IMG/VR virus record: IMGVR_UViG_3300028196_000006
Location: 1-64,000 of that record
Length of the DNA: 64,000 bases
Source: a virus
Reading direction: 5' to 3' (one strand)
The position numbers were made by a program, and so were the translations under genes. Positions within the stretch are counted from its first letter, which is position 1. The number at the start of each line of letters is the position of its first letter. The notes beneath the pieces were generated by a model. That model worked only from the letters and a program-made list of their open reading frames with translations, did not search any database and was not told the origin of the DNA. This document shows, piece by piece, positions 16,901 to 43,327 of this stretch.

Positions 16901-19300
16901 AAATGGTATGTGAATGCTGTTGGTGGTTCGACAACTTCAGACATGTTCTACATGAGAAATGCAACAGGTTTAAGAAACTGTACAGTACAAGGTTTATCAG
17001 GTTCATTGGGAGCGGCAAACAGTTATGGAACGAAACGTCCATCAGCAGGTGCTTTTCTTTCTCTTGATCCAGGATATGGCACAGCAGACGAAAGTGTCTG
17101 GATTGGTGCACTGAATGGTGCAGGTGGAAGATCACCTTACATTCAAAATGTTACAACATTTGGAACAGGTGCTGTAGGACAAAAAATTGATGGAGATTTA
17201 CACGCAGGTGGTAATGACTCTATGGTATCAAATGACTTTACGCAGGTAATATCAGATGGTATTGGTGCATGGATCACAAATTTAGGAAGAGCAGAACTTG
17301 TATCTGTGTTCTCATACTATGGACACATTGGATACCTTGCAGAAACAGGTGGAAAAATACGTGCTACAAACGGTAACTCATCATATGGTGATTTTGGTTG
17401 TGTGGCAGAAGGTGTTGATCCAACTGAAGTTCCTGTAACAGGTAAAGTTAACAACAGATCTACTGATGCAGTAGTTGACAGTGTGTTTACAGATGGTAAT
17501 CAAATACTTGCACTTGAATATGGCAACGCAGGTAGAGAATATTCAAATGCTACTGTAACTATCACAGGCGACGGTTTTGGATTAAATGGTGTTGTGGCAA
17601 CTTACAACACAGGCGGAGTGTACAAAATTAGATTAACAGAAACTCCTGCTTCTGATCCATCAGATTTAGGTGGTAAAGGTTTTGTAACTACCACAAACTC
17701 AGGACAAACGGGTACAACAACAAATATCACATTGGCGGCGGCAGATTCGGCGGCAAGTGGAGTTTATGTTGGGATGGCATTGTTTATTACTGAAGGTAAA
17801 GGTGCTGGACAGTACGGTTACATTGACACTTACAATTCATCTAGCAAAATTGCCGCAATTAAAAAATTCTCAGACAGCTCAGCAGGTTGGGACACATTGG
17901 GTGGCAAAGCAGTTGAGACAACACTGGATTCAACAACAATCTACGAAATCACTCCAAGAGTGGTTATAGGTGCTCCAAGTAATGATGGTTCAACAACTCC
18001 TAGACAGGCAGTTGCTAGAGCAGTTGTTACAGGAGAAGTTATTTCAAGTGTTAAAATATTAGATTGTGGTGCTTCTTATACAAGTGCACCAACAGTAACA
18101 TTCACAGATCCAAACAACACTACAGAAGCGCCTGTACAAGCATACATTGGCGATGGTGTATTAGGTCAACCAACATTTGTTGCAAGAGGTTCTGATTATG
18201 TAACTGCTTCTGCTGGAATCACAGAACAAGGTGTACAAGCAACTGTAACAGGAATTACACAGGCTACAACAGCAGTGATCACAACATCAGCGGCACACAA
18301 CTTTAATACAAACGATAAAGTTAAGTTTGACGGAATACTTGGAATGGTCGAATTAAACACTGGTGTGTTCTACTATGTTAAAGTTTTAACAACAGACACA
18401 TTTGAAATTTATGCAGACTACGAACTAACAACTCCAATTAATTCAACTGGCTACACAGCATATGCAAGTGCCGGAACAGCAGAAACATTTGGTGGATTTA
18501 GAGATGACTATCAAACAGGAAAATATATTGCTGTTGAAAATTTAACATCAATTCCAAGAGCAGGATCAAACATTGAGTTTGGTCACTTACCAGGACAATA
18601 TTTCAAACTGGTTGCTGTTAATCAACAACTTGGAACACAAACTCCTTTCACAGGTCTATTACAAGTTTCACCAGATATAAAATCTTATGAATCACCAGAA
18701 CATGGACAGTCCATAGAAATGAGAATTAGATACTCACAAGTTAGATTAACTGGTCACGATTTCCTAGACATAGGTACTGGTAATTTTACAAACACAAATT
18801 ATCCAGGGTTACCTTTACAAAATCCAATACCAGCAAACGAAACTGTTGAAGGTGGTGGAGGAAGAGTATTCTTTACTTCTACAGACCAAGACGGTAACTT
18901 TAGAGTAGGAGATTTATTCTCAGTAGAACAAGCAACTGGTATTGCTTCATTGAACGCAGATGCATTCAACATATCAGGACTACAAGAATTACAGTTGGGT
19001 GACTTAGCATTAGGTGGAACAAGTGCTTCTATCAATGAATTCTCAACTGATGGTACAATGGCGGCTAATTCAGACGCAATTGTTCCGACTCAGAGAGCAA
19101 TAAGAACTTATATCGCTTCACAAATTGGTGGTGGTGCTAGTTCGCTCAATGTTAACTTGATTACTGCGGGATTAGTGGTAATTACTGGTAATACGATAAG
19201 TACAAGTAACAATGTAGGAATCAATTTCCAAAGCGTCACTAACTTCACAAAAGGAGTTACTGGTGTACCGATTGCGATGAACTACTTAATACATAGTTAA
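13931..19300 (+). CDS. Giant virion/tail-fibre protein, 1789 aa; paralog of 8742..13895
   Basis: Same N-terminus (MAxFxxxRIRFxWxGxW), CBM-like repeats, and shared C-terminal YSQVRLTGHDFLDIGTG / TSTDQxGNFRVG. Confidence 0.75.
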   Translation: MAEFKLGRIRFVWKGAWYTSALYSVDDVVRYGGRTYICIVNHTSATEFQDDLTAANWALMSDGQEWKGDWGVNTTYKPNDVVKYGGYIYICNTGHASNADVNIGLEGDIAKWDLFIEGFDYKTDWAIATRYKVNDLVRYGATVYLCVTEHTSAATLADGLELDIAKWEVFAKGFNWLNTWAISTRYKPNDTVRYGGQLYVCITGHTSAGTVALGLENDQAKWQYLHKGIEYLGAWVTATRYKVNDVVKYGANLWIATASHTAGASLAADEANWDIFIPGLEFEDSWSSSTQYQPGDIVTYGGYQYVGLRNNLNKVPSTETADWDLFVTGFSLKGDYNNATAYKTGDVVRVGGTTYIAIADTTGNRPPSVLHWDKLNEGLYWKGVWSNAAVFDKGDIVRGSINTDTSYICITAHTSNNVGPATINQPDYAPGAGVDTSVWQLLAGGPENDVLESEGDILIYGASGPARLPIGASGQALVVNGAGTLPQWGFVGQVDQVYYVGPSGVDTPAPNAGVTLDSPFKTVRYALHQIDLGPRNPQGVNLLTRNKAFIQDEIIAWINVQIAGNISPFTSAFTYDAVKCRRDIGIIVDATINDLRKGGNVRSREAALSYFTDLGASYVAGQEAQTAAAIVRAAYIAQQVVVNSSGYTPSQGTTLQVTDLTKIAESTVVADINTLMTVPSDAITAGNINSVPAKLSPQITLNVKTGTYYEILPMSVPANCAVVGDELRSTNIRPAGSLVAGGDVQYSLQGIQRLEAIISDVIQNNAVSVTPSGGIITVPTGASLGYQGAGLIEGTGTVNTTASGSGSGATFTLTTNAFGFVTGLTVLAPGQNYVVGETITIPSTETINNPSTGDTAIGETITFQVLTVTTGNTITQNVAVPAGSSTAGTAAAAIADNIEKYIDFKINAVGSDVAVTGSNTANVDVGYTDARLRLLANRDFMAKECAEFVKRANPGYVFGQNDCEDDIKDYIDGIIYDLQYTGNYMSLKGAKWYVNAVGGSTTSDMFYMRNATGLRNCTVQGLSGSLGAANSYGTKRPSAGAFLSLDPGYGTADESVWIGALNGAGGRSPYIQNVTTFGTGAVGQKIDGDLHAGGNDSMVSNDFTQVISDGIGAWITNLGRAELVSVFSYYGHIGYLAETGGKIRATNGNSSYGDFGCVAEGVDPTEVPVTGKVNNRSTDAVVDSVFTDGNQILALEYGNAGREYSNATVTITGDGFGLNGVVATYNTGGVYKIRLTETPASDPSDLGGKGFVTTTNSGQTGTTTNITLAAADSAASGVYVGMALFITEGKGAGQYGYIDTYNSSSKIAAIKKFSDSSAGWDTLGGKAVETTLDSTTIYEITPRVVIGAPSNDGSTTPRQAVARAVVTGEVISSVKILDCGASYTSAPTVTFTDPNNTTEAPVQAYIGDGVLGQPTFVARGSDYVTASAGITEQGVQATVTGITQATTAVITTSAAHNFNTNDKVKFDGILGMVELNTGVFYYVKVLTTDTFEIYADYELTTPINSTGYTAYASAGTAETFGGFRDDYQTGKYIAVENLTSIPRAGSNIEFGHLPGQYFKLVAVNQQLGTQTPFTGLLQVSPDIKSYESPEHGQSIEMRIRYSQVRLTGHDFLDIGTGNFTNTNYPGLPLQNPIPANETVEGGGGRVFFTSTDQDGNFRVGDLFSVEQATGIASLNADAFNISGLQELQLGDLALGGTSASINEFSTDGTMAANSDAIVPTQRAIRTYIASQIGGGASSLNVNLITAGLVVITGNTISTSNNVGINFQSVTNFTKGVTGVPIAMNYLIHS

Positions 19301-19313
19301 AGGAGAAAAAACA

Positions 19314-19634
19314 ATGGCTTCAGGAAGAATAGGAAAAGCAGATCTTTTAGCCGCTACACTTACGACTATCTACACAACACCTGCTGACACTTTTACAGTG
19401 GCAACAGTATCGTTTTGTAACAGAGGTAACCAAGCAGTTACAGTAAGGTTAGCAGTGGCAGATTCGGCTACACCGGACGCATCAGAATATCTTGAGTACG
19501 AAACAGAGATTTTGAGTCATGGTGTGTTGGAAAGAACTGGTTTAGTACTGTCTGCAACGCAATTATTGGTAGCATATTCAAGTGCCGCTAATGTAAGTGC
19601 AGTTGTAAGCGGTATTGAAACAAGTACAGCATAA
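19314..19634 (+). CDS. Small virion protein, 106 aa
   Basis: AAGGAG SD; pattern similar to 6235..6567; follows a giant fibre gene. Confidence 0.6.
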   Translation: MASGRIGKADLLAATLTTIYTTPADTFTVATVSFCNRGNQAVTVRLAVADSATPDASEYLEYETEILSHGVLERTGLVLSATQLLVAYSSAANVSAVVSGIETSTA

Positions 19635-19649
19635 TTTTAAGGTAAATTA

Positions 19650-19657
19650 TATAAATA
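19650..19657 (+). promoter_or_regulatory. Canonical T4 late promoter TATAAATA heading the Cys-rich cassette
   Basis: Exact TATAAATA. Confidence 0.7.
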
Positions 19658-19691
19658 GTATAAAAGAGTACTAATAAAGGAAACAAAGACA

Positions 19692-20024
19692 ATGGGAAGA
19701 TACATATCAACAACTGGAACTGCTGGCGTAGTCACTAAACAAGTGGCAACAACTTACCAAGCAGTGGTAAATGATAGAATCTTAGCAGATAGTGCCGGTG
19801 GTACTTTCACAATCACGTTACCTCTTAATGCTTCTTTGTTGATTAATGACACAATTCAGATCATTGATGCAACATCGAACTTTGGAACTAACGCGGTTAC
19901 AGTTGCTAGGAATGGTTCACTAATTCAAGGTTCAGCAGACGACTTAACAATGGACTTAAATGGTGCAATCGCAACTTTGATTTACACTGGTCCAACTTAT
20001 GGTTGGATAATTGGTGCTGTATAA
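19692..20024 (+). CDS. Stand-alone tail-fibre/baseplate adaptor-type domain, 110 aa
   Basis: DSAGGTFTITLP...DTIQIID...NAVTVARNG...LIYTG..YGW, a module usually seen inside T4-like fibre proteins. Confidence 0.55.
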   Translation: MGRYISTTGTAGVVTKQVATTYQAVVNDRILADSAGGTFTITLPLNASLLINDTIQIIDATSNFGTNAVTVARNGSLIQGSADDLTMDLNGAIATLIYTGPTYGWIIGAV

Positions 20025-20082
20025 TTTTTTATAATATTTTATATTAAATTTACATCATTAAACACTTGGAGAAACAAAAACA

Positions 20083-21045
20083 ATGGCTAGTTTAAAATCA
20101 TTACTTGGAACAAAACAGGACGCATTCGTCTCGGTTGAGGAATCTAATTTAGAGAAAGGACGTATTTACGTTTATACTCCTGGAACTAACTATTCTAGAT
20201 TATGGTGCGGATTTTGTTTCCACCCAGAAGTGGCAGGTACTGCCATAATAGAAATTTGGGGAGCAGGTGGATCGGGTGGTGAGATGTGCTGTTGTGGTTT
20301 TGGTTTACCAGGCAATGCAGGTGCATATGTCAAAAAACAAATTTCAATGTCTCCAGGAGATTATATATGTGGATGTGCAGGACTAAGTTGTGGTAACTCG
20401 GGTTCTTTATGTTTTAGAGGTTGTTCAGAAGCCTCTCATGCAAGATTTTGTATAGCAAGTTCAGAGACTTGTGCTTGTGCAGAAGGTGGAAAGGGTGGAG
20501 TAACTTATTGTTCTACTAACTCATCTTTTTATTGTTGTTACAGAGCAAATGGCTTTTGTGTAACAAGAACAGACAACGACAACTGCGGTATTATTTGTAA
20601 CCAATGTGATGGTTCATGGTGTGCTCAAGCATTCGGTGGACAAGAAAATAAATGTGGAAGAATTTCATGTGTATCAGCATTTGGCTGTTATCCATCATGT
20701 ATTTGTATGTTCCATCATCATATACCTACTCCAGCAGGAATGGGTTCTAAAGAAGGTAGAATGATCACTTACACTAATGATGACGGTAGCGGAGTATCAA
20801 ACTGGTCAGGTCAAGGACACTATCACCACTTGGCAAACATGGGTTCAGGCAGATTTCCAACAGGCGGTGTGCCTTGGGCAAGTTGTTGGGACGGTGGTCT
20901 TGCTTGTGGTTGTTATGAGAATGATGGTTGTATACCTCAGATGCCGATTGGTACAGGAGGAAGAGGACCTAACCCATGTCCGGGAGTTAGAGATCACGCA
21001 ATCAGAGGTGGACACGGAGGAGTACGAATTAAATTCGTAAGTTAA
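20083..21045 (+). CDS. Cys-rich, Gly-rich-domain protein 1 (putative fibre tip/adhesin)
   Basis: IEIWGAGGSG, MCCCG, C-terminal RGGHGGVRIKF; 31 Cys in 320 aa by hand count. Confidence 0.65.
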   Translation: MASLKSLLGTKQDAFVSVEESNLEKGRIYVYTPGTNYSRLWCGFCFHPEVAGTAIIEIWGAGGSGGEMCCCGFGLPGNAGAYVKKQISMSPGDYICGCAGLSCGNSGSLCFRGCSEASHARFCIASSETCACAEGGKGGVTYCSTNSSFYCCYRANGFCVTRTDNDNCGIICNQCDGSWCAQAFGGQENKCGRISCVSAFGCYPSCICMFHHHIPTPAGMGSKEGRMITYTNDDGSGVSNWSGQGHYHHLANMGSGRFPTGGVPWASCWDGGLACGCYENDGCIPQMPIGTGGRGPNPCPGVRDHAIRGGHGGVRIKFVS

Positions 21046-21049
21046 TTTT

Positions 21050-22066
21050 ATGGCTAGTCTAACAACATTACTTCAATCCAAATATGATTTTTCAGTAGGA
21101 AATGAAACTAACCTTGAAAAAGGTAGAATTTATCAATATTATCCAGGTACATCAAGAGGCACAAACTTTAGATGTCACATATGTTTTATAGCACCATCAG
21201 ACGGTACTGCCACAATAGAAGTTTGGGGAGCAGGTGGATCAGGTGCAAAAATGTGTTGTTGCGGTGGAGGAATTCCAGGTAACCCAGGTGCATATTCTAA
21301 GAAAACAATTACAATGGCAGATGGTTGTTACATTTGTGCAATTATCGGTATGTCATGTGGTAACTCAGACACACTATGTTTTAGAGGTTGTTCTGAACCA
21401 ACTCAGGTATGTTGGTTTGGTAATGGCGGATCAGACGGATGTGTATGTGCTCAGGGTGGAATTGGTGGAGCAAGTTGGTGTTCAACTGGTAACTCAATTT
21501 ACTGTTGTGCAGTAGCGTCGGGTTTCTGCAATACACAAGGCGGTGACTCATATTGTGGTATCATTTGTAACTTTATGGATTCAGCGGCTTGTCCTCAATT
21601 TTGTGCTTTTGCATACGGTGGAGATGTAAACTGTTATGGTGGATTTAGTTGTCATTACTTTAGAGGATGTCAACCAAACTGTAACTGTAGACAAGTTCCA
21701 GTTAATAGATTCCCTCCAGGAATGATTTCAACATTGGGTGGTGAAGTACACTACACAATGGATTCAGACAACGGAAGATCACAATGGTCAGGAATGGGCG
21801 GATGGATGAATGCTTCACATGGTTTCAATTTAGCAACACGTAATCCTACAACAGGCGGTCCTTACACTGGTTGTTGGGAAGGTAACAGATCGTGTGGTTG
21901 TTATGAACAACAAGGTTGTAACACTTTCTATCCAGCAGGTATTGGTGGACAAGGTCCAACACCTTGTGATGGTGTTAGAGATCACGCTCACAGAGGCGGA
22001 CATGGATTAGTTAGAATTAAGTTTGTATCAACAACCGACGATTACGAAATAGACTCAACTCCATAG
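21050..22066 (+). CDS. Cys-rich, Gly-rich-domain protein 2
   Basis: Collinear paralog; 31 Cys in 338 aa by hand count. Confidence 0.65.
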   Translation: MASLTTLLQSKYDFSVGNETNLEKGRIYQYYPGTSRGTNFRCHICFIAPSDGTATIEVWGAGGSGAKMCCCGGGIPGNPGAYSKKTITMADGCYICAIIGMSCGNSDTLCFRGCSEPTQVCWFGNGGSDGCVCAQGGIGGASWCSTGNSIYCCAVASGFCNTQGGDSYCGIICNFMDSAACPQFCAFAYGGDVNCYGGFSCHYFRGCQPNCNCRQVPVNRFPPGMISTLGGEVHYTMDSDNGRSQWSGMGGWMNASHGFNLATRNPTTGGPYTGCWEGNRSCGCYEQQGCNTFYPAGIGGQGPTPCDGVRDHAHRGGHGLVRIKFVSTTDDYEIDSTP

Positions 22067-22093
22067 GTTAACAAATAGAGGTAAATAAAGTAT

Positions 22094-23068
22094 ATGGCAA
22101 GTTTAAAAGGATTATTAACTACTAGAAACCCAGCAGAGATGATTGAAAACAATCTCGAAACTGGTTACATTTATTCTTATACTTCAGGTACAAATTACAC
22201 AAAATTTTGCAATGGTATTTGTTGGACAGCAAACGTTGATGGCACAGCCGAAATAGAAGTTTGGGGTGCAGGCGGATCAGGTGCAAGAATGTGCTGTTGT
22301 GGAGACGGATTACCAGGTAACGCAGGTGCATATGTGAAAAAGTCAATCACAGTAGCGGCAGGCGACACAATGACAGGTCAAACAGGACACAGTTGTTATG
22401 CTCATGATTTATGTTTTTCAGGATGTTCAGAACAATCAGAAGTTTGTTGGATCACAGCCGCAAACGGTAATGGCTGTATATGTTCAAGAGGTGGATTTGG
22501 TGGGAAATCTATGTGTACAACAGGATCATCATTATTTTGTTGTTTTAGAGCACAAGGTTTCTGTTACACAAAATGCAACAACAACGACTGCGGAACAATA
22601 TGTAACGTGTGTAATGGACAATGGTGTTCATTAGGATACGGTGGAGATACAGGCAAAAACTGTTGCGGACAGTTTTCATGTGCTAGTTTCTTTGGATGTT
22701 GTCCACATTGTAAGTGTCAGTTTCAACAACACGTGGCTACACCAGCAGGATTATTTTCAGAAGACGGTGCATTGATCACGTTCCAAAAAGAATCAGATGG
22801 AACTCCAATGTCACAATGGTCAGGAAACCAATTATTTCAGTGGTATGCGGCACTTAACTTGGCAACAAAAACACCAAGACAAGGTACTCCGGATGCACAC
22901 TGTTGGAGATCAACAAGATCTTGCGGATGTTACGAGATGCAAGGTTGTAACAATTATCTACCTGTGGGAGCAGGTGGGCTATCACCTAACCCATGTCCAG
23001 ACGTAAGGGATCATGGAATAAGAGGTGGATTTGGTGGAGTAAGAATCAAGTTTGTTCCGTCAAGTTAA
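22094..23068 (+). CDS. Cys-rich, Gly-rich-domain protein 3
   Basis: Collinear paralog; 32 Cys in 324 aa by hand count; own promoter GGTAAATA at 22080-22087. Confidence 0.65.
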   Translation: MASLKGLLTTRNPAEMIENNLETGYIYSYTSGTNYTKFCNGICWTANVDGTAEIEVWGAGGSGARMCCCGDGLPGNAGAYVKKSITVAAGDTMTGQTGHSCYAHDLCFSGCSEQSEVCWITAANGNGCICSRGGFGGKSMCTTGSSLFCCFRAQGFCYTKCNNNDCGTICNVCNGQWCSLGYGGDTGKNCCGQFSCASFFGCCPHCKCQFQQHVATPAGLFSEDGALITFQKESDGTPMSQWSGNQLFQWYAALNLATKTPRQGTPDAHCWRSTRSCGCYEMQGCNNYLPVGAGGLSPNPCPDVRDHGIRGGFGGVRIKFVPSS

Positions 23069-23107
23069 ACATAGTTTGATAAATAAAAGTATAACAGGAT
23101 AAAAACA

Positions 23108-23761
23108 ATGGCAATAGAAAAAGCATTTACAATAGCAGTACCAAATGAACCATACGTTAACGACTTCAGTGACGGTATAACACAAGCGGCAACGTACAAT
23201 GGTGATAGATATATTAAGTTTCAATACCATGCGACTACAGGATTTATTGCTGGAGTTATTGGAAATGGCGACACTGAAGAATTAATGGTTGCCAATGAAG
23301 GTCCTTTAATGGAAGGTCATCTTCCAGCAATTATAGATGCAGATGCGGATCCTTTACATGCGGCAATGATCACAGAATGGTACACTTCAGGAGAAAAAGC
23401 AAACTACTCAGAAGACTTAGGCACAACAGATGCTGACGGCAAAGCAGAAACTTGGGAACATCAGTGGAGCGATGAACAGATCCTGGCTCAGATTTGGAAG
23501 TTAGACACAATTAAATATGTGAACAACGCCATAGTGGATCCAGAATTTATGACACACGGTATGACTGCAGAACAATTTACAGACAGTATCACAAGTCAAA
23601 TAGCATCTTGTACAACAGAACTAGCAAGAGCGGATGTGTACACTGACGAAGAAGCGACAGCAATCACCGCACACAAAACTATGTTGGAAGGTATGTCAAC
23701 AAAGTATGATGGTGTATCGTTTTGGAAAATTCCTTTCCCAACACAACCAAACTTTAAGTAA
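23108..23761 (+). CDS. Hypothetical protein, possibly a fibre-assembly chaperone; paralog of 23810..24475
   Basis: PNEPYVxxFSxGIT...YxGDRYxKF shared with the next gene; C-terminal helices then WKxxxPxxP; late promoter GATAAATA at 23078-23085. Confidence 0.5.
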   Translation: MAIEKAFTIAVPNEPYVNDFSDGITQAATYNGDRYIKFQYHATTGFIAGVIGNGDTEELMVANEGPLMEGHLPAIIDADADPLHAAMITEWYTSGEKANYSEDLGTTDADGKAETWEHQWSDEQILAQIWKLDTIKYVNNAIVDPEFMTHGMTAEQFTDSITSQIASCTTELARADVYTDEEATAITAHKTMLEGMSTKYDGVSFWKIPFPTQPNFK

Positions 23762-23809
23762 TCACTTTTAGTCGTTACTCAGATTAACTAGCAATAAATA
23801 ATTCTAGTT

Positions 23810-24475
23810 ATGACAGACCAACGAGAAATCTTAAATCAATACAAGTTCGAAATGGAAATACCCAACGAACCGTATGTAGATAATTTCAGTCAAGGTATCA
23901 CACACACAGCATATTATGCCGGTGATAGATATTTAAAATTTGCTGTCAACGATGACACTGGAATAATTGGAGAATGTTTACATAGAGCACCAACTAAAGA
24001 ATTACTTGAAACAAGAATTTCTCATCTTGAACCAGGACATACTGCACTAATAATAGATGGTGCAAAAAATCCATGGGAAGCATCATATTTGACAAGAGTA
24101 TACAATCATGAACCAGTACCGTACTACCAAGAAGATGTAGGACAACTGGACGATGACGGGAATTCTATATCATGGGAATACAATTGGGGCCATGTGCTGA
24201 ATCAGATATATTATAATCAAGAATTAAAATACATCAACGGTGAATTTGTGAAGCCACGATTTAGGGTACATCAACACACCAACGAAAAAGTTCATCAAAC
24301 AGTGCTAGATCACATCGAAATGTGTGATAACGAATTGTCAAGATTAGTGTATAATGAATCCCAACGACAAGCCATTGAAAAATGTAAAGCAGGTTGGATC
24401 AACATAAGAGATAATTTTCAACACGTGCACCATTGGAAACTAAAATACCCAGACATGCCATTAATAAAACCATAG
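23810..24475 (+). CDS. Hypothetical protein, possibly a fibre-assembly chaperone; paralog of 23108..23761
   Basis: Shared motifs as above; late promoter AATAAATA at 23793-23800. Confidence 0.5.
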   Translation: MTDQREILNQYKFEMEIPNEPYVDNFSQGITHTAYYAGDRYLKFAVNDDTGIIGECLHRAPTKELLETRISHLEPGHTALIIDGAKNPWEASYLTRVYNHEPVPYYQEDVGQLDDDGNSISWEYNWGHVLNQIYYNQELKYINGEFVKPRFRVHQHTNEKVHQTVLDHIEMCDNELSRLVYNESQRQAIEKCKAGWINIRDNFQHVHHWKLKYPDMPLIKP

Positions 24476-24525
24476 AATCACTATTATAATCACATAAAAA
24501 ATTAATCTATAAATATTTGTATCAA

Positions 24526-25479
24526 ATGAGCACAGAACAAAAAAGACCTAAAGCATTTTTACTCAATGGCGGAATGGGTAGAATTATATCTGCTATACCT
24601 GCCTTAGAAAAATATCAAGAAGAAGGAAATGATCCAGATTTCATTATTGTGATCGAAGGTGTTTGTGATATTCTAAAAGGACATCCAACGTTGGATTCAA
24701 AAACATATGATATGTATCACAAAAATTTATTCCATACAAAGTTAGTTAACATGGATATTGTAAGTCCTGAACCATACAGAGTGCATGAATATTTCAATCA
24801 AAAATGTAATATTGCTCAAGCATTTGATGTGTTAATCAACAACAAAGGAATTAGAGACTTACCTAAATCAACACTGATATTAAGCAAAGAAGAATTACTT
24901 GCTGGAAAAAAAGCAATAGATGAAGTTAAAGAGAAATTAAAAAAAGAAAAAGTTGTAGTGATTCAACCTTTCGGAAGAGCAATACAACAGATAGACGGAT
25001 CGTTTGTTGATAAAACTAATAGAAGTATTGAGTTTTTTAATTTAAAGAGCATTATTAAAAAATTACAGGAGAAAGATTTTGCAGTTATGTTGATGAGTGA
25101 ATTTGGCATAGACTTTAAAGATGCTGGATTTCCAGATGAAGTAGCAATGCCAGAAAAAGTAGAATTAAGACAATGGGCGGCAATTATAAAATATGCTGAT
25201 CAGTTTTTAGGTTGCGATTCTTTAGGACAACATCTTGCTTACAGTTTAGATACACCAGCAAGTGTTGTGTTTGGTGCAACATATCCTGAAAACACTTCAT
25301 ATGCTAAATCAGAAAATCTTAAACACATAGATCTAGGTCAAATGACACGTGAATATGATCCAATAAGAATAACAATGGATGAAAGAATTAGTAGAAAACA
25401 AGAACAAATAATGGCAATGACACCTGAAATAGAAGACTATGTAGTTTCTGCAGTTAATGGTGAATCAATAGAGGACTAA
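24526..25479 (+). CDS. GT9-like (ADP-heptose:heptosyltransferase-like, GT-B) glycosyltransferase 1
   Basis: GGMGRIISAIPAL, VVIQPFG, LRQWAAII, FLGCDSLGQHLAYSLDTPASVVFGATYP (GT9 consensus GxDSGxxHLAxAxxxPxxxxFGxT). ATG 24526 preferred; TATAAATA at 24508-24515. Confidence 0.7.
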   Translation: MSTEQKRPKAFLLNGGMGRIISAIPALEKYQEEGNDPDFIIVIEGVCDILKGHPTLDSKTYDMYHKNLFHTKLVNMDIVSPEPYRVHEYFNQKCNIAQAFDVLINNKGIRDLPKSTLILSKEELLAGKKAIDEVKEKLKKEKVVVIQPFGRAIQQIDGSFVDKTNRSIEFFNLKSIIKKLQEKDFAVMLMSEFGIDFKDAGFPDEVAMPEKVELRQWAAIIKYADQFLGCDSLGQHLAYSLDTPASVVFGATYPENTSYAKSENLKHIDLGQMTREYDPIRITMDERISRKQEQIMAMTPEIEDYVVSAVNGESIED

Positions 25480-25481
25480 CA

Positions 25482-27311
25482 ATGGATGATATAGAAAAAT
25501 ACAATAAAACAGGATATATTGCCGCAATAGCCAGAGGGCATAATGCAGGTGTTTGTCTTTTAAAAGACGGTGAAGTGGTTTTTTCAATAGAGGAAGAACG
25601 TTTATCTAGAAGAAAATATGATGGTGGACCATATGCATCAATGGTAGAAATATTGAAGTATACAGATAAAATTGATTATCTAGTTGTTGCTCACACACAA
25701 AGTTTAGATGATAGATCAACAGGTAGAGTAGATTATTCAGGAGATGATGTTTACACAGGTATGGCAAGGAAATTAGGATTAATTGACAGATATGTGCAAG
25801 AACAAAAACATCCTCAAGTAATAGATTTATCACACATTCATCACAAATTACATGCCGCTTGTGCTTTTTATAGATCAGGATTTGACAAAGCAGTAGCAGT
25901 GATAGTTGACGGTGCTGGAACTTTTATTCCAGTTAAGAACAGTATCTCTGGTGAAACAACTGTGTTTGAAGTTGAAAGTATTTTCAGTTGTGATTATCCC
26001 AATGATATTTTCGCACTGTACAAACATTATGGTACGGGAGAAGCAAGTCCAGGAGCATTTTATCCAGACTTTGCTTCTGATTCCATAGGTGAACCTGGTA
26101 AGACACACCAAGCACTGTTCACAGACAAAGCAGGAATTGTAAAAGTTTACGAAGCAGTTACACAGTATTGTGGATTCTCGGCAATTGAAGCAGGCAAAAC
26201 AATGGGATTATTTCCATATGGTAAACCAAATGACATGGTTCCTAAACTTTTTAAGAAAGAAGGATACTATTCTTTATCAGATAGAAATTTTATTATACCA
26301 ACATATCCCAATGCCTCAATAGTTAACAGTGGACTTTATCCTTTCATCGATGAAAATCCTGCATCAGATAAAAAAGAAGATTGGACAACATTACAAAATA
26401 GAAGAGATCTAGCATACGCAGTTCAAAAAGAATCACAAAAAGAATGTTTGGATTTAATCTACAAAGCAGTACAACTGAGTGGTTGTAAAAACGTTGTATT
26501 TTCAGGAGGATACGGACTTAACTGTGTTGCCAATTATTATTATTTAGAACACTTAAAGAAAGACGGCATAAACTTTTATGCTGAGCCAGTTTCAAACGAT
26601 GCTGGAACGGCAATGGGTGCGGCAATGTTGTTTTATTACAGTCTTACACAGTCTAAAGAAAAGAAAGTAGACGAACCAACGTTATACCTTGGACCAAAAA
26701 GAACATATTCAGCAGAACAGATTGAAATAGCATGTAATCAAGAAGGTGTTGAACTTACAGATGCAACCAATGAAGAAGTTGTAAAAATTATTACTGACAA
26801 GAATATTGTTTCAGTGTTCCAAGGAGCCAGTGAAAACGGACCTAGAGCATTGGGTAATAGATCAATATTATACGATCCAAGAGATCCAGATGGTAAAGAT
26901 CATGTTAACAAAGTTAAACACAGAGAATACTTTAGACCTTTTGCTGGAACTATATTGCACGAATACGTGCATGAATGGTTTGATTTAAGAGGAATGGACG
27001 AAACACCTCACATGATGTATGCAGTAAATTGTCAACCAGGAATTGGAGAAAAAATACCTAGTATTATTCACGTTGACGGAACTTGTAGAATACAATCTGT
27101 AAAAAGAGAACAAAATCCGTTGTATTATGATTTAATAAAAGAGTTTCATAAACAAACAGAATGTCCTATAATTTTCAATACGTCATTTAATTTAGGCGGT
27201 GAACCATTAGTAGAAACATTGGATGATGCTGTAAGAACATTAGTAAACAGTGAAATAGAATACTTGTTTTTACCCGAATACGGAAAACTGATAAAGGTAG
27301 CAAACAAATGA
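25482..27311 (+). CDS. O-carbamoyltransferase, NodU/CmcH/TobZ family
   Basis: EEERLSRRK, HHKLHA, VDGAG, GKTMGL, GGYGLNCVAN, DAGTAMG, GPRALGNRSIL, REYFRPFA, HVDGTCRIQ, NTSFNLGGEP. Confidence 0.92.
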   Translation: MDDIEKYNKTGYIAAIARGHNAGVCLLKDGEVVFSIEEERLSRRKYDGGPYASMVEILKYTDKIDYLVVAHTQSLDDRSTGRVDYSGDDVYTGMARKLGLIDRYVQEQKHPQVIDLSHIHHKLHAACAFYRSGFDKAVAVIVDGAGTFIPVKNSISGETTVFEVESIFSCDYPNDIFALYKHYGTGEASPGAFYPDFASDSIGEPGKTHQALFTDKAGIVKVYEAVTQYCGFSAIEAGKTMGLFPYGKPNDMVPKLFKKEGYYSLSDRNFIIPTYPNASIVNSGLYPFIDENPASDKKEDWTTLQNRRDLAYAVQKESQKECLDLIYKAVQLSGCKNVVFSGGYGLNCVANYYYLEHLKKDGINFYAEPVSNDAGTAMGAAMLFYYSLTQSKEKKVDEPTLYLGPKRTYSAEQIEIACNQEGVELTDATNEEVVKIITDKNIVSVFQGASENGPRALGNRSILYDPRDPDGKDHVNKVKHREYFRPFAGTILHEYVHEWFDLRGMDETPHMMYAVNCQPGIGEKIPSIIHVDGTCRIQSVKREQNPLYYDLIKEFHKQTECPIIFNTSFNLGGEPLVETLDDAVRTLVNSEIEYLFLPEYGKLIKVANK

Positions 27312-28288
27312 GTAAAAAAACAGCAATATTTTTAAACGGCGGTGCTGGCAGAATGATCAGTTCTATTCCAGCAGTGGAAAAATACCTCGAAGAAAATCCT
27401 GAAAAAGATCCTATATTAGTTTGCGAAGGTGGAACTGATGCTTTTAAAGGTCATCCTAAACTGTATTTTAAAGCATACGACAGTTGGCACAAAAACCTAT
27501 TTCAAGAGTTGCTTAAAGATCGAGAATTAATTAGTCCTGAACCATACAGAATTTGGGAATATTATAATCAAAAATGTAGTCTTGCTCAAGCATACGATAT
27601 TGCCATCAACAACAAAGGCATTAGAGATTTACCCAAACCAACTATAAGATTAAGCAAAGAAGAATTACTTATGGCAAGAAAAATGATTGCTGAAGTAAAA
27701 GACAAAACAGGCAAAGACAAAATTGTTGTGGTCCAGCCATTTGGAAGAAGTGCTCATCCTGAAAATTTAACTGAAAAACAGATGAAAGAAGACAAACAGC
27801 CAGACATCGCAGATGTTACTGGTAGAAGTATAGAACTAAAAAATGTTTGGAGCATTGTAAGAAAACTATCTAAAAAGTATGGAGTTATGATGATGAGTGA
27901 ATTCCCATTGGAATTTAAAAAACACATGTCGTCTCCCGTGGCAACACCAATGAATGTACACATAAGAATATGGATGGCTGTCATAAAACAAGCAAATCAC
28001 TTTGTTGGTTGTGACTCGGTTGGACAACACATTGCATATGCATTCAACGGAACTTCCACAGTATTAATAGGTTCTACATATCCCGTAAACACATCATTTC
28101 CTGATTCAGATAATGTTGACATTATTGACCTTGGATTAGAAGATAGAGTATATTCGCCTATAAGAATCACTTCAGATGAGTTCAGTGACAGAACAAACGA
28201 AGGGATTATGGCTATGGATGATCAATCAGAAGACAAAGTTATCAAGTCTGTAGAAAAGATGCTTAAACACAGTAAAAACAAGCAGTAA
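27308..28288 (+). CDS. GT9-like glycosyltransferase 2; paralog of 24526..25479
   Basis: GGAGRMISSIPA, SPEPYR, VVVQPFGR, FVGCDSVGQHIAYA; ATGA overlap with the carbamoyltransferase. Confidence 0.7.
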   Translation: MSKKTAIFLNGGAGRMISSIPAVEKYLEENPEKDPILVCEGGTDAFKGHPKLYFKAYDSWHKNLFQELLKDRELISPEPYRIWEYYNQKCSLAQAYDIAINNKGIRDLPKPTIRLSKEELLMARKMIAEVKDKTGKDKIVVVQPFGRSAHPENLTEKQMKEDKQPDIADVTGRSIELKNVWSIVRKLSKKYGVMMMSEFPLEFKKHMSSPVATPMNVHIRIWMAVIKQANHFVGCDSVGQHIAYAFNGTSTVLIGSTYPVNTSFPDSDNVDIIDLGLEDRVYSPIRITSDEFSDRTNEGIMAMDDQSEDKVIKSVEKMLKHSKNKQ

Positions 28289-28357
28289 TACCCAAAATAC
28301 AGTAATAATACAATAGTTCTAGATTAGGTAAATACACTATAATAAGGATTATTCTAT

Positions 28358-38430: not shown

Positions 38431-38808
38431 TTATTTTTCTTCTATTTTTTGTGAATCGCCAGGAATGATTCTATAATTGTCTTCTGGATCGTCAGCAGTG
38501 CTCACTTCAGTGATGCTACCTCGATCAGTTAAACATTGAACTTGATGTGGCATTAGAGGTAAATTTCTCCATGTTTCACCTTCTTTAAGTTCTTTTGTTA
38601 ACAGAGATGCAGTTTGAGTATCTATCCAACTTAAAAGGAATTTTCCTTCGTTCACAAACCAAGTTTCATCTTTGGTTTTGTGAAAATGCATTGAGAATTT
38701 AGCACCTTTGCGTTCAAACACCATGATTTTTCCACAGTACTTGTCATTGGAAGCCCAAATTAATTCGTATCCCCAACCTTTATCTACTTTTCCTTCTTTA
38801 TTAATCAT
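38431..38808 (-). CDS. Cupin, sugar isomerase-like
   Basis: KGWGYE, SMHFHKTKDETW, PHQ, EVST. Confidence 0.75.
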   Translation of the reverse strand: MINKEGKVDKGWGYELIWASNDKYCGKIMVFERKGAKFSMHFHKTKDETWFVNEGKFLLSWIDTQTASLLTKELKEGETWRNLPLMPHQVQCLTDRGSITEVSTADDPEDNYRIIPGDSQKIEEK

Positions 38809-39616
38809 TTAAATATTGCTCAACTGTTTTATAATTTATTGTAACATTTTTATTTAATTCAGTTAAATCTGCACAGGTGTAAGACTGATATTGTCCTGTG
38901 AGTTGTTGAGGCATTGGTATTGTTTGTATTTTGGCATTGTATTTTTTAGCCACAGAATCTGCTACACTTTGAAATGATGTTGCTGTGCCTGTGCCAACAT
39001 TGTAAATACCGCTTACATCGTGTTGTAGCATTTGACAGTGTACGTTACACACATCATCCACACACACAAAATCTCTAAGATATTGATCACTATTTTCGAA
39101 TAATTTTATTATGCCACTTTCTTTTGCTTGTTTTGAAAATTTAGTTACTGGAGATGCTTGATCTCCTTTGTGTTCTTCATGATCTCCATACACATTAAAA
39201 TATCTAAATCCTTGAACTAATATTTTAAATTCTCCCATGGCTTGTTGAACAAATCTATCAAACAAATACTTGCTCCAAGCATAGGGTGATTGAGGATATA
39301 TTGGTCCGTTTTCTACAAAACTGTTTGTGTTACCATACACACTGGCAGAACTAGAATATTGAAAATTTACTCCCATTGTGTCACACATTTGTAATAATTT
39401 TAAACTGTATTCATAGTTTTGATCCATGATTAATTCTACATTTCTTTCTGTTGTAGAACTAATTGCTCCAAGGTGTATTACCCAATCATACATACTGGGA
39501 TCAGGAAAACTATTCATTGCATATTCAAATTTTGTTACTTCGTGGTTCATACTATCTAGATGTTTGCACAAATTTTTTCCTATAAATCCTTCAGCACCCG
39601 TTACACAAATTTTCAT
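38801..39616 (-). CDS. hldD: ADP-L-glycero-D-manno-heptose 6-epimerase
   Basis: VTGAEGFIG, HLGAISSTTE, YSSSASVYG, YAWSK, FRYFNVYG, RDFVCVDD, YQSYTCAD. Confidence 0.88.
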   Translation of the reverse strand: MKICVTGAEGFIGKNLCKHLDSMNHEVTKFEYAMNSFPDPSMYDWVIHLGAISSTTERNVELIMDQNYEYSLKLLQMCDTMGVNFQYSSSASVYGNTNSFVENGPIYPQSPYAWSKYLFDRFVQQAMGEFKILVQGFRYFNVYGDHEEHKGDQASPVTKFSKQAKESGIIKLFENSDQYLRDFVCVDDVCNVHCQMLQHDVSGIYNVGTGTATSFQSVADSVAKKYNAKIQTIPMPQQLTGQYQSYTCADLTELNKNVTINYKTVEQYLND

Positions 39617-40215
39617 ATCTTACACCATAGTTTATTAATTGATTCTGATCCTTGTGGCGAAATAGGTTTTAATAATTGATTATTCCAATCAGCAACGAAA
39701 TTAATATTAATATTAACTCTACATCTTTCATCAGAACAAGTACTTCCGGTGTGTTCCATGTGGCTGGGGAATATTACCATGGAGTTAGCAACACTTGGAA
39801 CTTTATCGCCATCTTTAAATTCTGTAAAACCATTGTTGGTGTTACAATAAAATATTGCTGTATAACTCAGTGGCACACTTACGTCACAGTGCATGCCGTG
39901 AGTCACAATTGTTTCTCTTCCAGGTATATTGTTTGCTTTTACTCTTAAAAAAGTGTGAGGTTGAAGCACAGCAAAAATAGGAAAACACATGTTCCATATT
40001 TCAGGACTTGTGGCTATGTTACTGTTTTCGTGAAATTTATGCACAAACTGTATTTGATATTTTTCTTCTGTATTGGATTGATGTGAATGTACAACATGGT
40101 TTTGATAAAACCAAGGAAATTTATCACTCATGATTATATCCGTTAACTGTTTAAAATGTTCATCACTTAAAACATTTTTTAATGTTATTTTGTTATTTTT
40201 TATCTGTTGTTCCAT
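39613..40215 (-). CDS. 2OG-Fe(II) oxygenase, phage type
   Basis: HxD (MHCD), TAIFY.NTNNG.T.F, distal HTG and RVNININF. Confidence 0.7.
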   Translation of the reverse strand: MEQQIKNNKITLKNVLSDEHFKQLTDIIMSDKFPWFYQNHVVHSHQSNTEEKYQIQFVHKFHENSNIATSPEIWNMCFPIFAVLQPHTFLRVKANNIPGRETIVTHGMHCDVSVPLSYTAIFYCNTNNGFTEFKDGDKVPSVANSMVIFPSHMEHTGSTCSDERCRVNININFVADWNNQLLKPISPQGSESINKLWCKI

Positions 40216-41452
40216 TAACTTTGTTTAATAAATTTGTTGTTGAAAAACCTTTGACAGTTGGAAAAATTTTCACATCTGCCATTTCATTACCTACAGTGGT
40301 TTCCACACTGTAATCTCCACCTTTAACTATAACATCAGGTGTATATTTTTTAATTGATTCTAGTGGTGTATCTTCATTGAACACAACAACCTGATCTACC
40401 CAAGGCAACTCCATTAATTGTTGTTGTCTTGCTGACATACTATTGTAAGGACGGTCATTGCCTTTTAGTCTTTTAACACTATCATCTGAATTAATACCTA
40501 CAATCAATTTGTCTCCTTGATTTTTGGCAAATTTTAATAATTCTAAATGTCCTTGATGTAAAATATCAAAAACTCCATTAGTCCAAACTATTGTGTCTTC
40601 TATATCACTAATCTTAACAACAGTGACGCCTCTGTGTTGTACAACACTACTTGCACCTTTTAAAGCAAGAGAACAAGCATCTGTCATACTATGTCCTTGT
40701 TCAACATATTTTACAATAATTGCTAACACTGTATCTCCTGCACCACTGACGTCTGCCAATTCAACAGCGTCACCAGTGATGTGTTTGTATTCATTATTGC
40801 CAACAACATGAATGCCGTTGCCTCCATCAGTTACAACCAACCAATTCCAATTGAATTGAGTTCTGTATTGATCAGCATTTTCAGGATTAAATTTTCCAAA
40901 CCATTGTTCATACTCTTTCATATTAGGCTTAACCAGATATGCATCTTTATAGCAGTCAGGATTTTGTTTGGGATCTACATAAACTCTTTTTACCAAATGA
41001 ACAATATCACTCACAAGGGTGTTAGTAATTACACCTTTGTTGTAATCACTCACTAAAACAACATCATCCTTTTGTAAATTTTTTAATAAATTTTGTTTGG
41101 GCTGAGATTCGGTGTATGGTTCTTCACGATCCAGTCTTAATAGGTGCTGTCCGTCTGGTCCAATCATACGTGTTTTCACAGTGCTGGTTACAGCATCATT
41201 ACTGATGTATGATGTGATATTGTTTTTAAGCAGTATTTCTTGTATTCTGTGACCTGGGGCATCGTTGCCCACCGAACTGTAAAGATGTGTGTCTACGCCG
41301 AGATTTGATAGGTTTAAAGCGAGATTTCCTGCTCCTCCTATGTTGTAATTTCGAGAGTTTTCTTTCAGTACAAGAGTGGATGCTTCTGGAGATACTTTGG
41401 TACAATCACCCTGTACCCAAACGTCCAACATTACATCTCCAATTATTTTCAT
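40193..41452 (-). CDS. hldE: Bifunctional heptose-7-phosphate kinase / heptose-1-phosphate nucleotidyltransferase
   Basis: IGDVMLD, SPEA, GGAGN, SDYNKG, VDPK, PNMKE, DVSGAGDT (PfkB); TNGVFDILHQGH, GINSDDSV, VKGGDY, GFSTT. Confidence 0.92.
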   Translation of the reverse strand: MKIIGDVMLDVWVQGDCTKVSPEASTLVLKENSRNYNIGGAGNLALNLSNLGVDTHLYSSVGNDAPGHRIQEILLKNNITSYISNDAVTSTVKTRMIGPDGQHLLRLDREEPYTESQPKQNLLKNLQKDDVVLVSDYNKGVITNTLVSDIVHLVKRVYVDPKQNPDCYKDAYLVKPNMKEYEQWFGKFNPENADQYRTQFNWNWLVVTDGGNGIHVVGNNEYKHITGDAVELADVSGAGDTVLAIIVKYVEQGHSMTDACSLALKGASSVVQHRGVTVVKISDIEDTIVWTNGVFDILHQGHLELLKFAKNQGDKLIVGINSDDSVKRLKGNDRPYNSMSARQQQLMELPWVDQVVVFNEDTPLESIKKYTPDVIVKGGDYSVETTVGNEMADVKIFPTVKGFSTTNLLNKVNGTTDKK

Positions 41453-41883
41453 TTGATCAATTTTAACATTTTAAACACAGTATCCAATTTAATTTGATTC
41501 GTTTTATTTTGGAATGTTTTACGTAATCCTTGGTGTAATGGCTTGGGCCAGTTACCAAAAGTTACCCATGCATATCCATCATGTTCTGTGTTTAATATTG
41601 GAATAAATTCTTTTTCTACCACACACAAATAAGTATGATACAAAAAATTTTCATCATTGCTGACGAATGTTTCCATTGGAATAGTTTTTTTAATTGATTG
41701 TTCGCCTATTTCTTCTTTAATTTCTCTTTGAAGACCGTCCCATAAATTTTTATCTGAAGTTGTAGTACCACCGACCAATCCCCAAACATTATTTTGTTTA
41801 CTTTGAGTTCTGTGTAGTAATAAAAATCTTTTTGTATCTAGTGTATAGAAGAGTGCTCCACACCCTACAATTTTACTGTTCAT
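41449..41883 (-). CDS. NUDIX hydrolase
   Basis: WGLVGG...LQREIKEEIG, EHDGYAW; start set at ATG 41883 behind promoter-like CATAATTA (41889-41896). Confidence 0.8.
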   Translation of the reverse strand: MNSKIVGCGALFYTLDTKRFLLLHRTQSKQNNVWGLVGGTTTSDKNLWDGLQREIKEEIGEQSIKKTIPMETFVSNDENFLYHTYLCVVEKEFIPILNTEHDGYAWVTFGNWPKPLHQGLRKTFQNKTNQIKLDTVFKMLKLIK

Positions 41884-41899
41884 ACAATTAATTATGTGA

Positions 41900-43327
41900 C
41901 TAAGAGATCTTCCAAGTGCCTTTACGATATTCACCTTCGAAAGACAACAACCATTCTGTACCATTCCATTTATACTGTACACCAGTGTTTAAATTGGTAA
42001 CAAATGATTCTGTGAAATTGGCAACGGTGCTAGGATTAGCACTGGCATCAAAAATGACTTGCCAATTTGTTCCGTTCCATTCCACAATGTCATTGGCTCC
42101 TGCAACTAAATCTATATTGCTGTCACCTTTCCATGCATCTGCTCCGTCTTCGTTGTTGGAATCGCCAATGCCTTTCAATAATAGTAATCTTTTACCATTT
42201 TGTTTCACACTGGATGGATCAAACGATGCAGGATCAACAATAAAATCTACTGAACCACTGGTCGTAACTGGTCCAACAATAACAGTGTCAGTTGGAATTG
42301 TGTCTTCATCCCAATCAATTAAAAGTTGGTGTGGATTTGCTTCATTCACTGCCACAGTACCAACCACTTGAGCATCAATACCTTGTCTATTTAAATAAAT
42401 TTTGCTCAATCCATTTTTATAGTTTGGTATGGTTAACACATTGCCTGTCCATACTTCTCCACCTATAACACCTTTAGTTATAATTTGAGCAACACTGTTC
42501 AACACATATATGTCAACATTGATACCTGTTGTGCCTTGCACAGAATCTGTATCTTTTCTTATTGCTCGTCCTTTATCATCTAACTTGATGCTGTTTTCAT
42601 ATCCATCTTGATATGCTTTTAATTCAGGCATTGTTTGACTTAGATCTATATTACCTGATTGTTCGTTAAAAATACTTGTAATAATATGAGTAATCACTCC
42701 TAATTTTTTTACTTTTGTTGGTGGTGATATGAATATTGGTGTCGTGAATCCCAGTGTGGCAACATCAACTTCTGATTCTGTACCTAATGGAATTGTTCTT
42801 GATGAAAAATTAATATTTGACAATTCGACAACACTTAAACTGGTCCAGTCAATATAGTTGTCTGTGGTTTGAATTTCAAGTGATGGATTAAACAACATCA
42901 TTATTTGTTCCATTATTTGTAACTTTTGTTCTGTGTTTGATGTCCAAATATCTGCATTCATTGTTAATGTGTAAGGCGTTGGCATCAATCTTTCAACAGT
43001 GACATTTTTGCCTTGTGTGTTTAGATATTCATTATTGTTGGCATCGTATGCTCTTTCTCTAACGTGTACTTTAGAAATAAAAGATGCATCTGCTAATCTG
43101 TTTCTATCCATTTCTAATCCAGTAACATATATTCCCATTCTTGGCACTGAAGGTAATTTGTTTTCTGAATTATCTCTTATGATATGTCCAACTTGTCTGC
43201 TGATATCTCCGTACATAACCGGTATAGTTTTTAATCCATCACTACCGTCTTTGTAAGAAAAATTACTCAGTAATCTAATAATTTGAGTAATGTATCTTCT
43301 AATCTGTCCGTCGTAAAAATGTTGCAT
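41900..43327 (-). CDS. Tail terminator / sheath stabiliser, T4 gp15-like, with C-terminal extension
   Basis: HFYDGQIRRY, IPVMYG, PRM, PTPYTL, QIMEQIMMLFNP; adjacent to neck genes. Confidence 0.7.
   Translation of the reverse strand: MQHFYDGQIRRYITQIIRLLSNFSYKDGSDGLKTIPVMYGDISRQVGHIIRDNSENKLPSVPRMGIYVTGLEMDRNRLADASFISKVHVRERAYDANNNEYLNTQGKNVTVERLMPTPYTLTMNADIWTSNTEQKLQIMEQIMMLFNPSLEIQTTDNYIDWTSLSVVELSNINFSSRTIPLGTESEVDVATLGFTTPIFISPPTKVKKLGVITHIITSIFNEQSGNIDLSQTMPELKAYQDGYENSIKLDDKGRAIRKDTDSVQGTTGINVDIYVLNSVAQIITKGVIGGEVWTGNVLTIPNYKNGLSKIYLNRQGIDAQVVGTVAVNEANPHQLLIDWDEDTIPTDTVIVGPVTTSGSVDFIVDPASFDPSSVKQNGKRLLLLKGIGDSNNEDGADAWKGDSNIDLVAGANDIVEWNGTNWQVIFDASANPSTVANFTESFVTNLNTGVQYKWNGTEWLLSFEGEYRKGTWKIS

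Follow-up and report, generated by a model that had tools for sequence, protein, structure and literature searches.

The 64,000-nucleotide window analysed here, positions 1 to 64,000 of IMG/VR record IMGVR_UViG_3300028196_000006, encodes two proteins, A and B, which belong to a phage-only clade of proteins resembling glycosyltransferase family 9 (GT9). This clade is set apart from ordinary GT9 members by the missing general-base Asp, in the place of which it carries an Arg. The central result is that the donor site is preserved and the base has been replaced. The source record belongs to an uncultured T4-like marine myovirus (91.7 kb, about 26% complete), and the nearest cultured relatives of the phage are cyanomyoviruses including S-SSM7, S-CAM1 and P-SSM2, with a DNA identity of 66–70%. 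The two genes flank a carbamoyltransferase gene in a compact operon with the following members.

24526..25479, plus strand: GT9-like protein A, 317 amino acids (aa), with R19 (24580-24582) in place of the catalytic Asp; further key residues are E82 (PEPY), E123, Q147-P-F-G, D162, R166, and D231 and H236 (GCDSLGQH); phrog_8954 match with an expectation value (E) of 8.7e-125; PF01075 match, 26.9 bits.
25482..27311, plus strand: NodU/NolO-type carbamoyltransferase, 609 aa; Carbam_trans_C match, E 2.1e-58, and Carbam_trans_N match, E 1.5e-23.
27308..28288, plus strand: GT9-like protein B, 326 aa, with R15 (27350-27352) in place of the catalytic Asp; further key residues are E78 (27539-27541), E119 (27662-27664), D169 (27812-27814), R173 (27824-27826), D236 (28013-28015) and H241 (28028-28030); phrog_8954 match, E 2.4e-132.

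The start of protein A was taken as the ATG at 24526, and an alternative TTG at 24517 is present in the list of open reading frames (ORFs). The carbamoyltransferase gene starts 2 nt past the stop of the protein A gene, and its own stop overlaps the start of the protein B gene (ATGA). Proteins A and B are 51% identical to each other.

The N-terminal loop reads LLNGGMGRIISAIPAL / NGGMGRIISAIPAL in protein A and FLNGGAGRMISSIPAV / NGGAGRMISSIPAV in protein B, with GG-x-G-R common to the two proteins and AGA as the codon of both R19 and R15. The motif GCDSxGQH is also kept in both, as D231/H236 in protein A and D236/H241 in protein B. At the corresponding loop, WaaC of E. coli K-12 has KTSSMGDVLHTLPAL / SSMGDVLHTLPAL. 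A preliminary description of this DNA had pointed out the GGMG-R and GGAG-R loops with their AGA codons and the shared GCDSxGQH, which are confirmed in the sequence, and had placed the Arg at the position of WaaC Asp13. The latter assignment agrees with a profile-profile comparison (hhalign) between the alignment of 73 family sequences and E. coli WaaC/WaaF/WaaQ/WaaU (97.2% probability, E 3.9e-11, 260 columns), in which R15 of protein B was paired with D13 of WaaC, and the donor-site residues R173, D236 and H241 were paired with K192, D261 and H266, respectively. It agrees also with the structural alignments to WaaC and WaaF, where residue 3 of the model falls on chain residue 1, the same offset of +2 as between R15 and D13.

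The description had further proposed to examine homologs for invariance of the Arg. Of the 268 family sequences, 263 keep it, as do 91 of the 95 that are left when redundancy is reduced to 60% identity; the few others have S, G, C or K at this position, and none has D, E or H. At the equivalent site, G-D is found in WaaC, WaaF, WaaQ, WaaU and 3tov, and this holds for all solved catalytic GT9 structures. The general base of TibC is Asp110, the equivalent of WaaC Asp13 (PMC4358343), and the general-base Asp of GT9 has been described as strictly conserved (bioRxiv 10.1101/2021.06.16.448588; PMC4358343). Neither protein A nor protein B has this Asp of the beta1-alpha1 loop. On the other hand, the equivalents of WaaC K192, D261 and H266 (R173, D236 and H241 of protein B), together with S237 and the QPFG loop, are each 97–100% conserved in the family, also in members whose overall identity is as low as 26%. 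Invariance equal to that of the Arg is shown by G11, G12, G14, E78-P79-Y80, E119, Q143-P144-x-G146, D169, R173-S174, R220, D236-S237, H241, G255, T257, N261 and R286 (protein B numbering). In the model of protein B, all of the family-invariant residues either follow directly on a predicted strand or occupy the start of a helix, and because strand-end loops of the GT-B fold face the inter-domain cleft, we infer that these residues line it.

Arginine is unable to abstract a proton. Base-assisted attack by a hydroxyl group is therefore presumably not used at the canonical position, and the presence of Arg there points to either a nucleophile that needs no base or a base located elsewhere. GT9 enzymes are a textbook example of inverting transfer with the aid of a base, and the fixation of Arg in a large viral clade implies that the nucleophile is another one, that the base has moved or that the fold has been put to a new use. 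An Asp that is often present five residues ahead of the Arg, at position 10, was considered as a displaced base and rejected; the residue is Asp in no more than 53 of 94 sequences, and both proteins of the window have Asn. At position 18 of protein B, three residues past the Arg, 41 of 97 non-redundant homologs carry a Cys (GR-V-I-C-A-I-P), as against Ser or Ala in the two proteins of the window.

The AlphaFold model of protein B had a predicted local distance difference test score (pLDDT) of 95.8 and a predicted template modelling score of 0.93, and the predicted fold is GT9-like over the full length. The top structural matches were 3tov (Z 23.9, root-mean-square deviation 3.5, 284 aligned), WaaF (Z 22.2), TibC (Z 20.4), chloroplast PnsB1 (Z 19.8) and WaaC (Z 19.3), all of them GT9 or GT9-like; the best non-GT9 GT-B family scored Z 12.9. 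In sequence searches, PF01075 matched only about 60 C-terminal residues (residues 210-267 of protein A; cut-off 22 bits), the 73-sequence family profile gave weak matches to WaaF and WaaC, and phmmer of protein A or B against the PDB sequences gave nothing relevant. Single-sequence searches barely detect the link to GT9, which is visible only by profiles and folds.

Compared with WaaC (HepI) and WaaF (HepII), the phage proteins have the same GT-B fold (Z 19-22), equivalent donor-site residues, and the N-terminal G-loop followed by the 'xxxxPAL' helix. They differ by the Arg in place of Asp13, by a smaller N-domain without the basic loops that bind Kdo2-lipid A, and by the phage-specific invariant motifs PEPY, YYNQ and AFD..IN. 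In addition, the phage clade is viral only and is found in fibre modules, and its sequence similarity to WaaC/WaaF is detected by profiles only. TibC and AAH, the bacterial autotransporter heptosyltransferases (BAHT family), have a GT9-like catalytic domain and carry out multiple heptosylation of protein from ADP-heptose, and they would be the best functional analogy for the decoration of a fibre protein. However, TibC keeps Asp110, is extended at the N-terminus by an iron finger of about 90 aa, assembles into dodecamers and targets Ser, whereas the phage proteins carry Arg and, at 317-326 aa with an alignment to TibC residues 92-396 only, have no such extension.

The family comprises 2138 clusters at E <= 0.001 in a set of 5.8 billion proteins, and 383 representatives at 50% identity. 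Its atlas clusters are 100% viral, and a prokaryote scan (one genome per species) gave 11 loci only, all of them contigs of metagenome-assembled genomes (MAGs) with the same phage cassette. The family is thus essentially phage-only. Among cultured phages, it is carried by cyanomyoviruses and by 78-79-kb Vibrio and Aeromonas phages at 23-26% identity; the distant Vibrio and Aeromonas copies keep GGLGR, PEPY and GCDSxGxH. One metagenomic homolog, P0229 (558 aa), has a GT8 domain (residues 47-212) fused to an Arg-bearing GT9-like domain (residues 252-554).

The region upstream of the GT9-like genes contains the following features.

19650..19657, plus strand: exact copy of the T4-type late-promoter motif TATAAATA, upstream of a small fibre gene and the Cys-rich genes.
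20083..23068, plus strand: three paralogous Cys-rich, Gly-rich proteins with 31-32 Cys each (9-10%), of the type of fibre-tip adhesins with tumour necrosis factor-like and glycine-rich domains; candidate acceptors.
23108..24475, plus strand: two paralogous proteins of about 220 aa, nearly free of Cys, between the adhesins and the transferase operon; the first is phrog_9740.
24508..24515, plus strand: second exact copy of the late-promoter motif, 11 nt 5' of the protein A gene; a putative promoter.

Only these two exact copies of the motif were observed in the 64-kb window, as compared with 5.1 expected from shuffled sequences, so that the motif is under-represented, and both copies are intergenic and just upstream of gene starts. 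The neighbouring proteins with 31-32 Cys that the description had mentioned are the three paralogs listed here. The model of a Cys-rich protein (pLDDT 73) matched the Pam3 fibre 7ypx (Z 14.9), the Bxb1 tail tip (Z 11.7) and the glycine-rich domain of ALK (Z 9.1), and on the basis of these structural matches the Cys-rich proteins are predicted to be fibre-tip adhesins. In the place of the pair of about 220 aa, proteins of 216-279 aa with 0% Cys are found in loci L091, L092, L094 and L096.

For the neighbourhood counts, 79 IMG/VR loci were recovered with a subset alignment profile of the family; a related-locus search with the single distant protein P0191 gave no loci. Among the loci with enough flanking sequence, an ORF with at least 6% Cys was present within 6 kb upstream of the GT9-like gene in 40 of 61, as against 1 of 68 downstream, and the Cys content across the related loci was 4.0% upstream and 1.0% downstream. 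Several of the remaining mapped loci have giant fibres with 5-6% Cys. Of the 11 independent MAG loci, 10 have ORFs with 6-12% Cys upstream. S-SSM7 has three Cys-rich proteins and P-SSM2 has two, in the same place as in the window, and whole-sequence scans of S-SSM7, P-SSM2 and the window gave no other ORF with at least 4% Cys, the ORFs with at least 9% Cys being found only there. In five cyanomyoviruses without the GT9-like gene (S-PM2, Syn9, P-SSM4, S-RSM4 and S-RIM44), no ORF exceeded 5.8% Cys. The sugar genes are missing from Aeromonas phage HJ05 and Vibrio phage K479; in both phages the adjacent fibre gene exceeds its near neighbours in Cys content. The only moderately Cys-rich ORF among the five gene-negative genomes encodes 538 aa with 5.8% Cys (Syn9, NC_008296, 117343-118959, minus strand). 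Fibre-like ORFs of 1100-1460 aa with 118-148 Cys (about 10%) lie directly upstream of the GT9-like gene in L030, L040, L046 and L057-L063, and few large phage proteins known to us are as rich in Cys. A BLAST search with the Cys-rich proteins of the window gave no match in the related loci, but the composition scan does show counterparts. A tblastn search with one Cys-rich protein against the phage collection gave no match either, and a profile of the Cys-rich proteins had no match in five other cyanophages, although this profile also misses the known proteins of S-SSM7 and P-SSM2 and is uninformative.

In most of the related loci, fibre-tip proteins with 5-12% Cys thus stand immediately upstream of the GT9-like genes. 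This synteny lends circumstantial support to the part of the preliminary description that regarded the Cys-rich neighbours as the target, whereas transfer to Cys itself is a plausible hypothesis.

A putative source of the sugar donor was also found in the window, on the opposite strand.

38431..41982, minus strand: ADP-heptose gene group, consisting of the five genes below.
38431-38808, minus strand: cupin, with a weak match to mannose-6-phosphate isomerase.
38801-39616, minus strand: HldD epimerase; ADP-glyceromanno-heptose 6-epimerase match, E 2.6e-73.
39613-40215, minus strand: 200-aa protein, function unassigned.
40193-41452, minus strand: bifunctional HldE; HldE match, E 5.1e-92.
41449-41982, minus strand: NUDIX protein.

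The HldE and HldD genes are located about 10 kb from the transferase operon, and in S-SSM7 and P-SSM2 they adjoin the GT9-like gene. Within 9 kb of the GT9-like gene, an HldD-like epimerase is present in 28, a cupin in 26 and HldE parts in 23 of the 79 loci, and other nearby genes encode a HAD-like protein (41/79), a NUDIX protein (11/79), a sulfotransferase (24/79) and an adenosine 5'-phosphosulfate (APS) kinase (16/79). Fibre proteins and the T4 neck and gp15 genes are also found near the GT9-like gene in the related loci. From this context, with hldE and hldD both in the window and in related loci, ADP-heptose is the probable donor, and from the synteny with the fibre-tip adhesin genes we infer a protein acceptor. 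The 91.7-kb record, which is about 26% complete, gave no gmhA gene (SIS_2). The cupin and a HAD-like protein of about 217 aa co-occur with split HldE and HldD in related loci (e.g. L030, L040 and L024), and if these two proteins stand in for GmhA and GmhB, as they may, the phage pathway to ADP-heptose would be complete.

In 59 of the 79 loci, the gene immediately downstream of the GT9-like gene encodes a carbamoyltransferase homolog. The order of the window, in which two transferase genes flank the carbamoyltransferase gene, is rare and was found also in the MAG locus L096. In P-SSM2, S-SSM7 and S-CAM1, a cassette of 'LPS (lipopolysaccharide) genes' consists of T4-GC 302 (hypothetical), 303 (carbamoyltransferase) and 304-308 (heptose genes). 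It contains orthologs of the window genes in the same order, with Cys-rich proteins upstream as well, whereas the window phage differs by its two GT9-like copies flanking the carbamoyltransferase. The P-SSM2/S-SSM7 cassette has been discussed as LPS genes or 'stuffer' DNA (PMC3037559); T4-GC 302 is hypothetical in the P-SSM2 and S-SSM7 records, and neither these records nor PMC3037559 mention the GT9 relationship or the Arg substitution. A pairing of GT9 heptosyltransferases with a NodU-family carbamoyltransferase is likewise known from Pseudomonas, where WapO (PA5005) is assigned to 7-O-carbamoylation of HepII, although that system is a cellular LPS pathway with Asp-bearing WaaC/WaaF. WapO, proposed to act on HepII of the Pseudomonas core, also provides the precedent for carbamoylation of heptose (PMC8005017).

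The explanation that we prefer, and to which we give about an even chance, is that proteins A and B are active, late-made, ADP-heptose-using transferases that act on the upstream Cys-rich adhesins, and that the carbamoyltransferase then modifies the heptose. The phage HldE and HldD would supply the ADP-heptose donor, which would be bound by proteins A and B after their production late in infection from the putative T4-type late promoter. The heptose would then be transferred to the phage's own Cys-rich fibre-tip adhesins, encoded just upstream, and the attached heptose would be carbamoylated by the enzyme encoded between A and B. In the several loci where it is the sole glycosyltransferase of its cassette, the GT9-like protein would have to start the glycan.

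Two chemistries are conceivable for this transfer. A Cys thiolate could act as the nucleophile with no base and with stabilisation by the guanidinium group, giving an S-linked heptose. Alternatively, a hydroxyl group could be activated by a relocated base, with the Arg binding the acceptor or the leaving phosphate. The most likely candidate for such a base is E78, because the PEPY loop follows strand beta4, the neighbour of beta1 in the Rossmann sheet; E119 and D169 are the other candidates, and the loops of all three are expected from the model to face the cleft. Within our preferred explanation the thiolate is slightly favoured; it fits Cys-richness, the one property common to partner proteins that otherwise cannot be aligned. 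The more specific proposal, that the clade consists of protein S-heptosyltransferases which decorate many Cys thiols of the adhesins with a heptose that is later carbamoylated, the guanidinium replacing the general base, is a tentative one, well short of an even chance.

Several points weigh against these proposals. E78, E119 and D169 of protein B are invariant acids and could provide a base. PF01075 matches the last 60 residues or so only, and protein B, at 15.9 bits, is under the cut-off. In 70 Cys-rich fibre proteins, no sequence motif was found around the Cys residues, only clustering of Cys, and no bias to even Cys counts was detected in the same set. The whole-genome Cys comparison is small, at 3/3 versus 0/5 (eight cyanophage sequences). 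The synteny may be mere co-inheritance of an adhesin and its modifying enzyme, and it is silent on the modified atom. No cyanophage virion protein is known from biochemistry or mass spectrometry to carry heptose; S-glycosylation is rare, and the cases known to us are those of GT-A enzymes acting on bacteriocins. Finally, the fibres of cyanophage Pam3 are held by disulfides (PMC9942802), so that an ordinary explanation for Cys-richness is available.

The S-glycosyltransferases of glycocins, SunS, ThuS and PalS, have the GT-A fold (GT2) and use UDP-hexoses and small bacteriocin peptides. The predicted fold of the phage proteins is GT-B and not this GT-A fold; the two groups would share the chemistry of attaching a sugar to a Cys thiol if the S-linked reading holds, and have no fold or sequence relationship.

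The loss of the canonical base is also what would be expected of a GT9-fold protein that is not catalytic, a role that the preliminary description had allowed for. Such a protein could bind a nucleotide sugar, or could serve without any ligand as a chaperone or scaffold for the adhesins, or could hold the carbamoyltransferase on its substrate. The gene stands directly after the fibre genes, the usual place of fibre chaperones, tail assembly chaperone genes adjoin it in some loci, and the coupling to the carbamoyltransferase gene is tight. PnsB1, a plant subunit of the chloroplast NDH complex, belongs to the same fold class (Z 19.8) and its role is taken as structural, which provides a precedent for a GT9-like fold as a structural subunit. 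Nevertheless, the 97–100% conservation of R173, D236, S237, H241 and QPFG is unexpected of a pseudoenzyme and argues against a dead enzyme, and the GT8 fusion of P0229 fits an enzyme. In several loci, moreover, the GT9-like gene is the sole glycosyltransferase gene of the cassette; the co-travelling ADP-heptose genes would have no user there if the protein were inactive. We consider the non-catalytic role possible but unlikely. A heterodimer with the carbamoyltransferase, also suggested in the description, may likewise form.

For an active heptosyltransferase, the acceptor could be something other than protein, either a glycan or lipid of the host envelope or an anionic group, such as a phosphate, a sulfate-bearing sugar or a carboxylate, bound by the Arg. 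The literature reads these clusters as genes for LPS or host-surface modification (PMC3037559; PMC7029224), the sulfotransferase and APS-kinase genes in 16-24 of the 79 loci make an anionic glycan plausible, and an acceptor group that is small and always the same is suggested by the strong conservation of the N-domain motifs. However, no flippase, polymerase, ligase or membrane protein was found in the cassettes examined, and the operon, with its late-promoter motif, lies inside the fibre module. The link to Cys-rich adhesins, which is seen even in the unrelated Aeromonas and Vibrio phages without sugar genes, would be left unexplained. A non-protein acceptor is therefore, in our judgement, quite unlikely. 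In L008, L022, L025, L039, L075 and others, the sulfotransferase and APS-kinase genes stand beside the GT9-like/carbamoyltransferase pair, and the glycan in the sulfotransferase-bearing phages may be sulfated as well as carbamoylated.

Phage GT-B enzymes that add one or two heptoses to 5-hydroxymethylcytosine have been reported (bioRxiv 10.1101/2023.12.21.572611), and the heptose could accordingly be destined for a modified base in DNA. Those enzymes, however, resemble T4 beta-glucosyltransferase and have a catalytic Asp, whereas the fold here is that of GT9, with no T4 beta-glucosyltransferase among the matches listed. No genes for base hydroxymethylation were present in the annotated part of the window, and the transferase genes are located in the late fibre module, away from the replication genes. 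DNA hypermodification is thus very improbable.

Returning to heptosylation of the adhesins, the genes of the family belong to the host-recognition cluster of cyanophage-like myoviruses of the ocean, beside the proteins that most probably contact the host. Heptosylation of the adhesins would mean that the host-range determinants of major marine phages bear an unsought glycan and that the 'LPS genes' of cyanophages need renaming. If in addition the linkage is to sulfur, a GT-B enzyme of the GT9 family would for the first time be known to S-glycosylate, S-linked heptose would be without precedent, and ocean myoviruses would widely carry a new kind of virion decoration. The cultured carriers S-SSM7, P-SSM2 and S-CAM1 make the question directly testable.

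The operon is found nearly identical in marine metagenomes from at least ten studies, and it was detected in six metatranscriptome libraries. Contigs from RNA libraries cover the region in four runs from three studies, and their depth was several-fold higher at 19000-23800, which contains the small fibre gene and the Cys-rich genes, than at 24200-28300, which contains the transferase operon. As a hint, this difference would fit structural versus enzymatic dosage, with contig depth being a poor measure for ranking genes and carry-over of DNA being possible.

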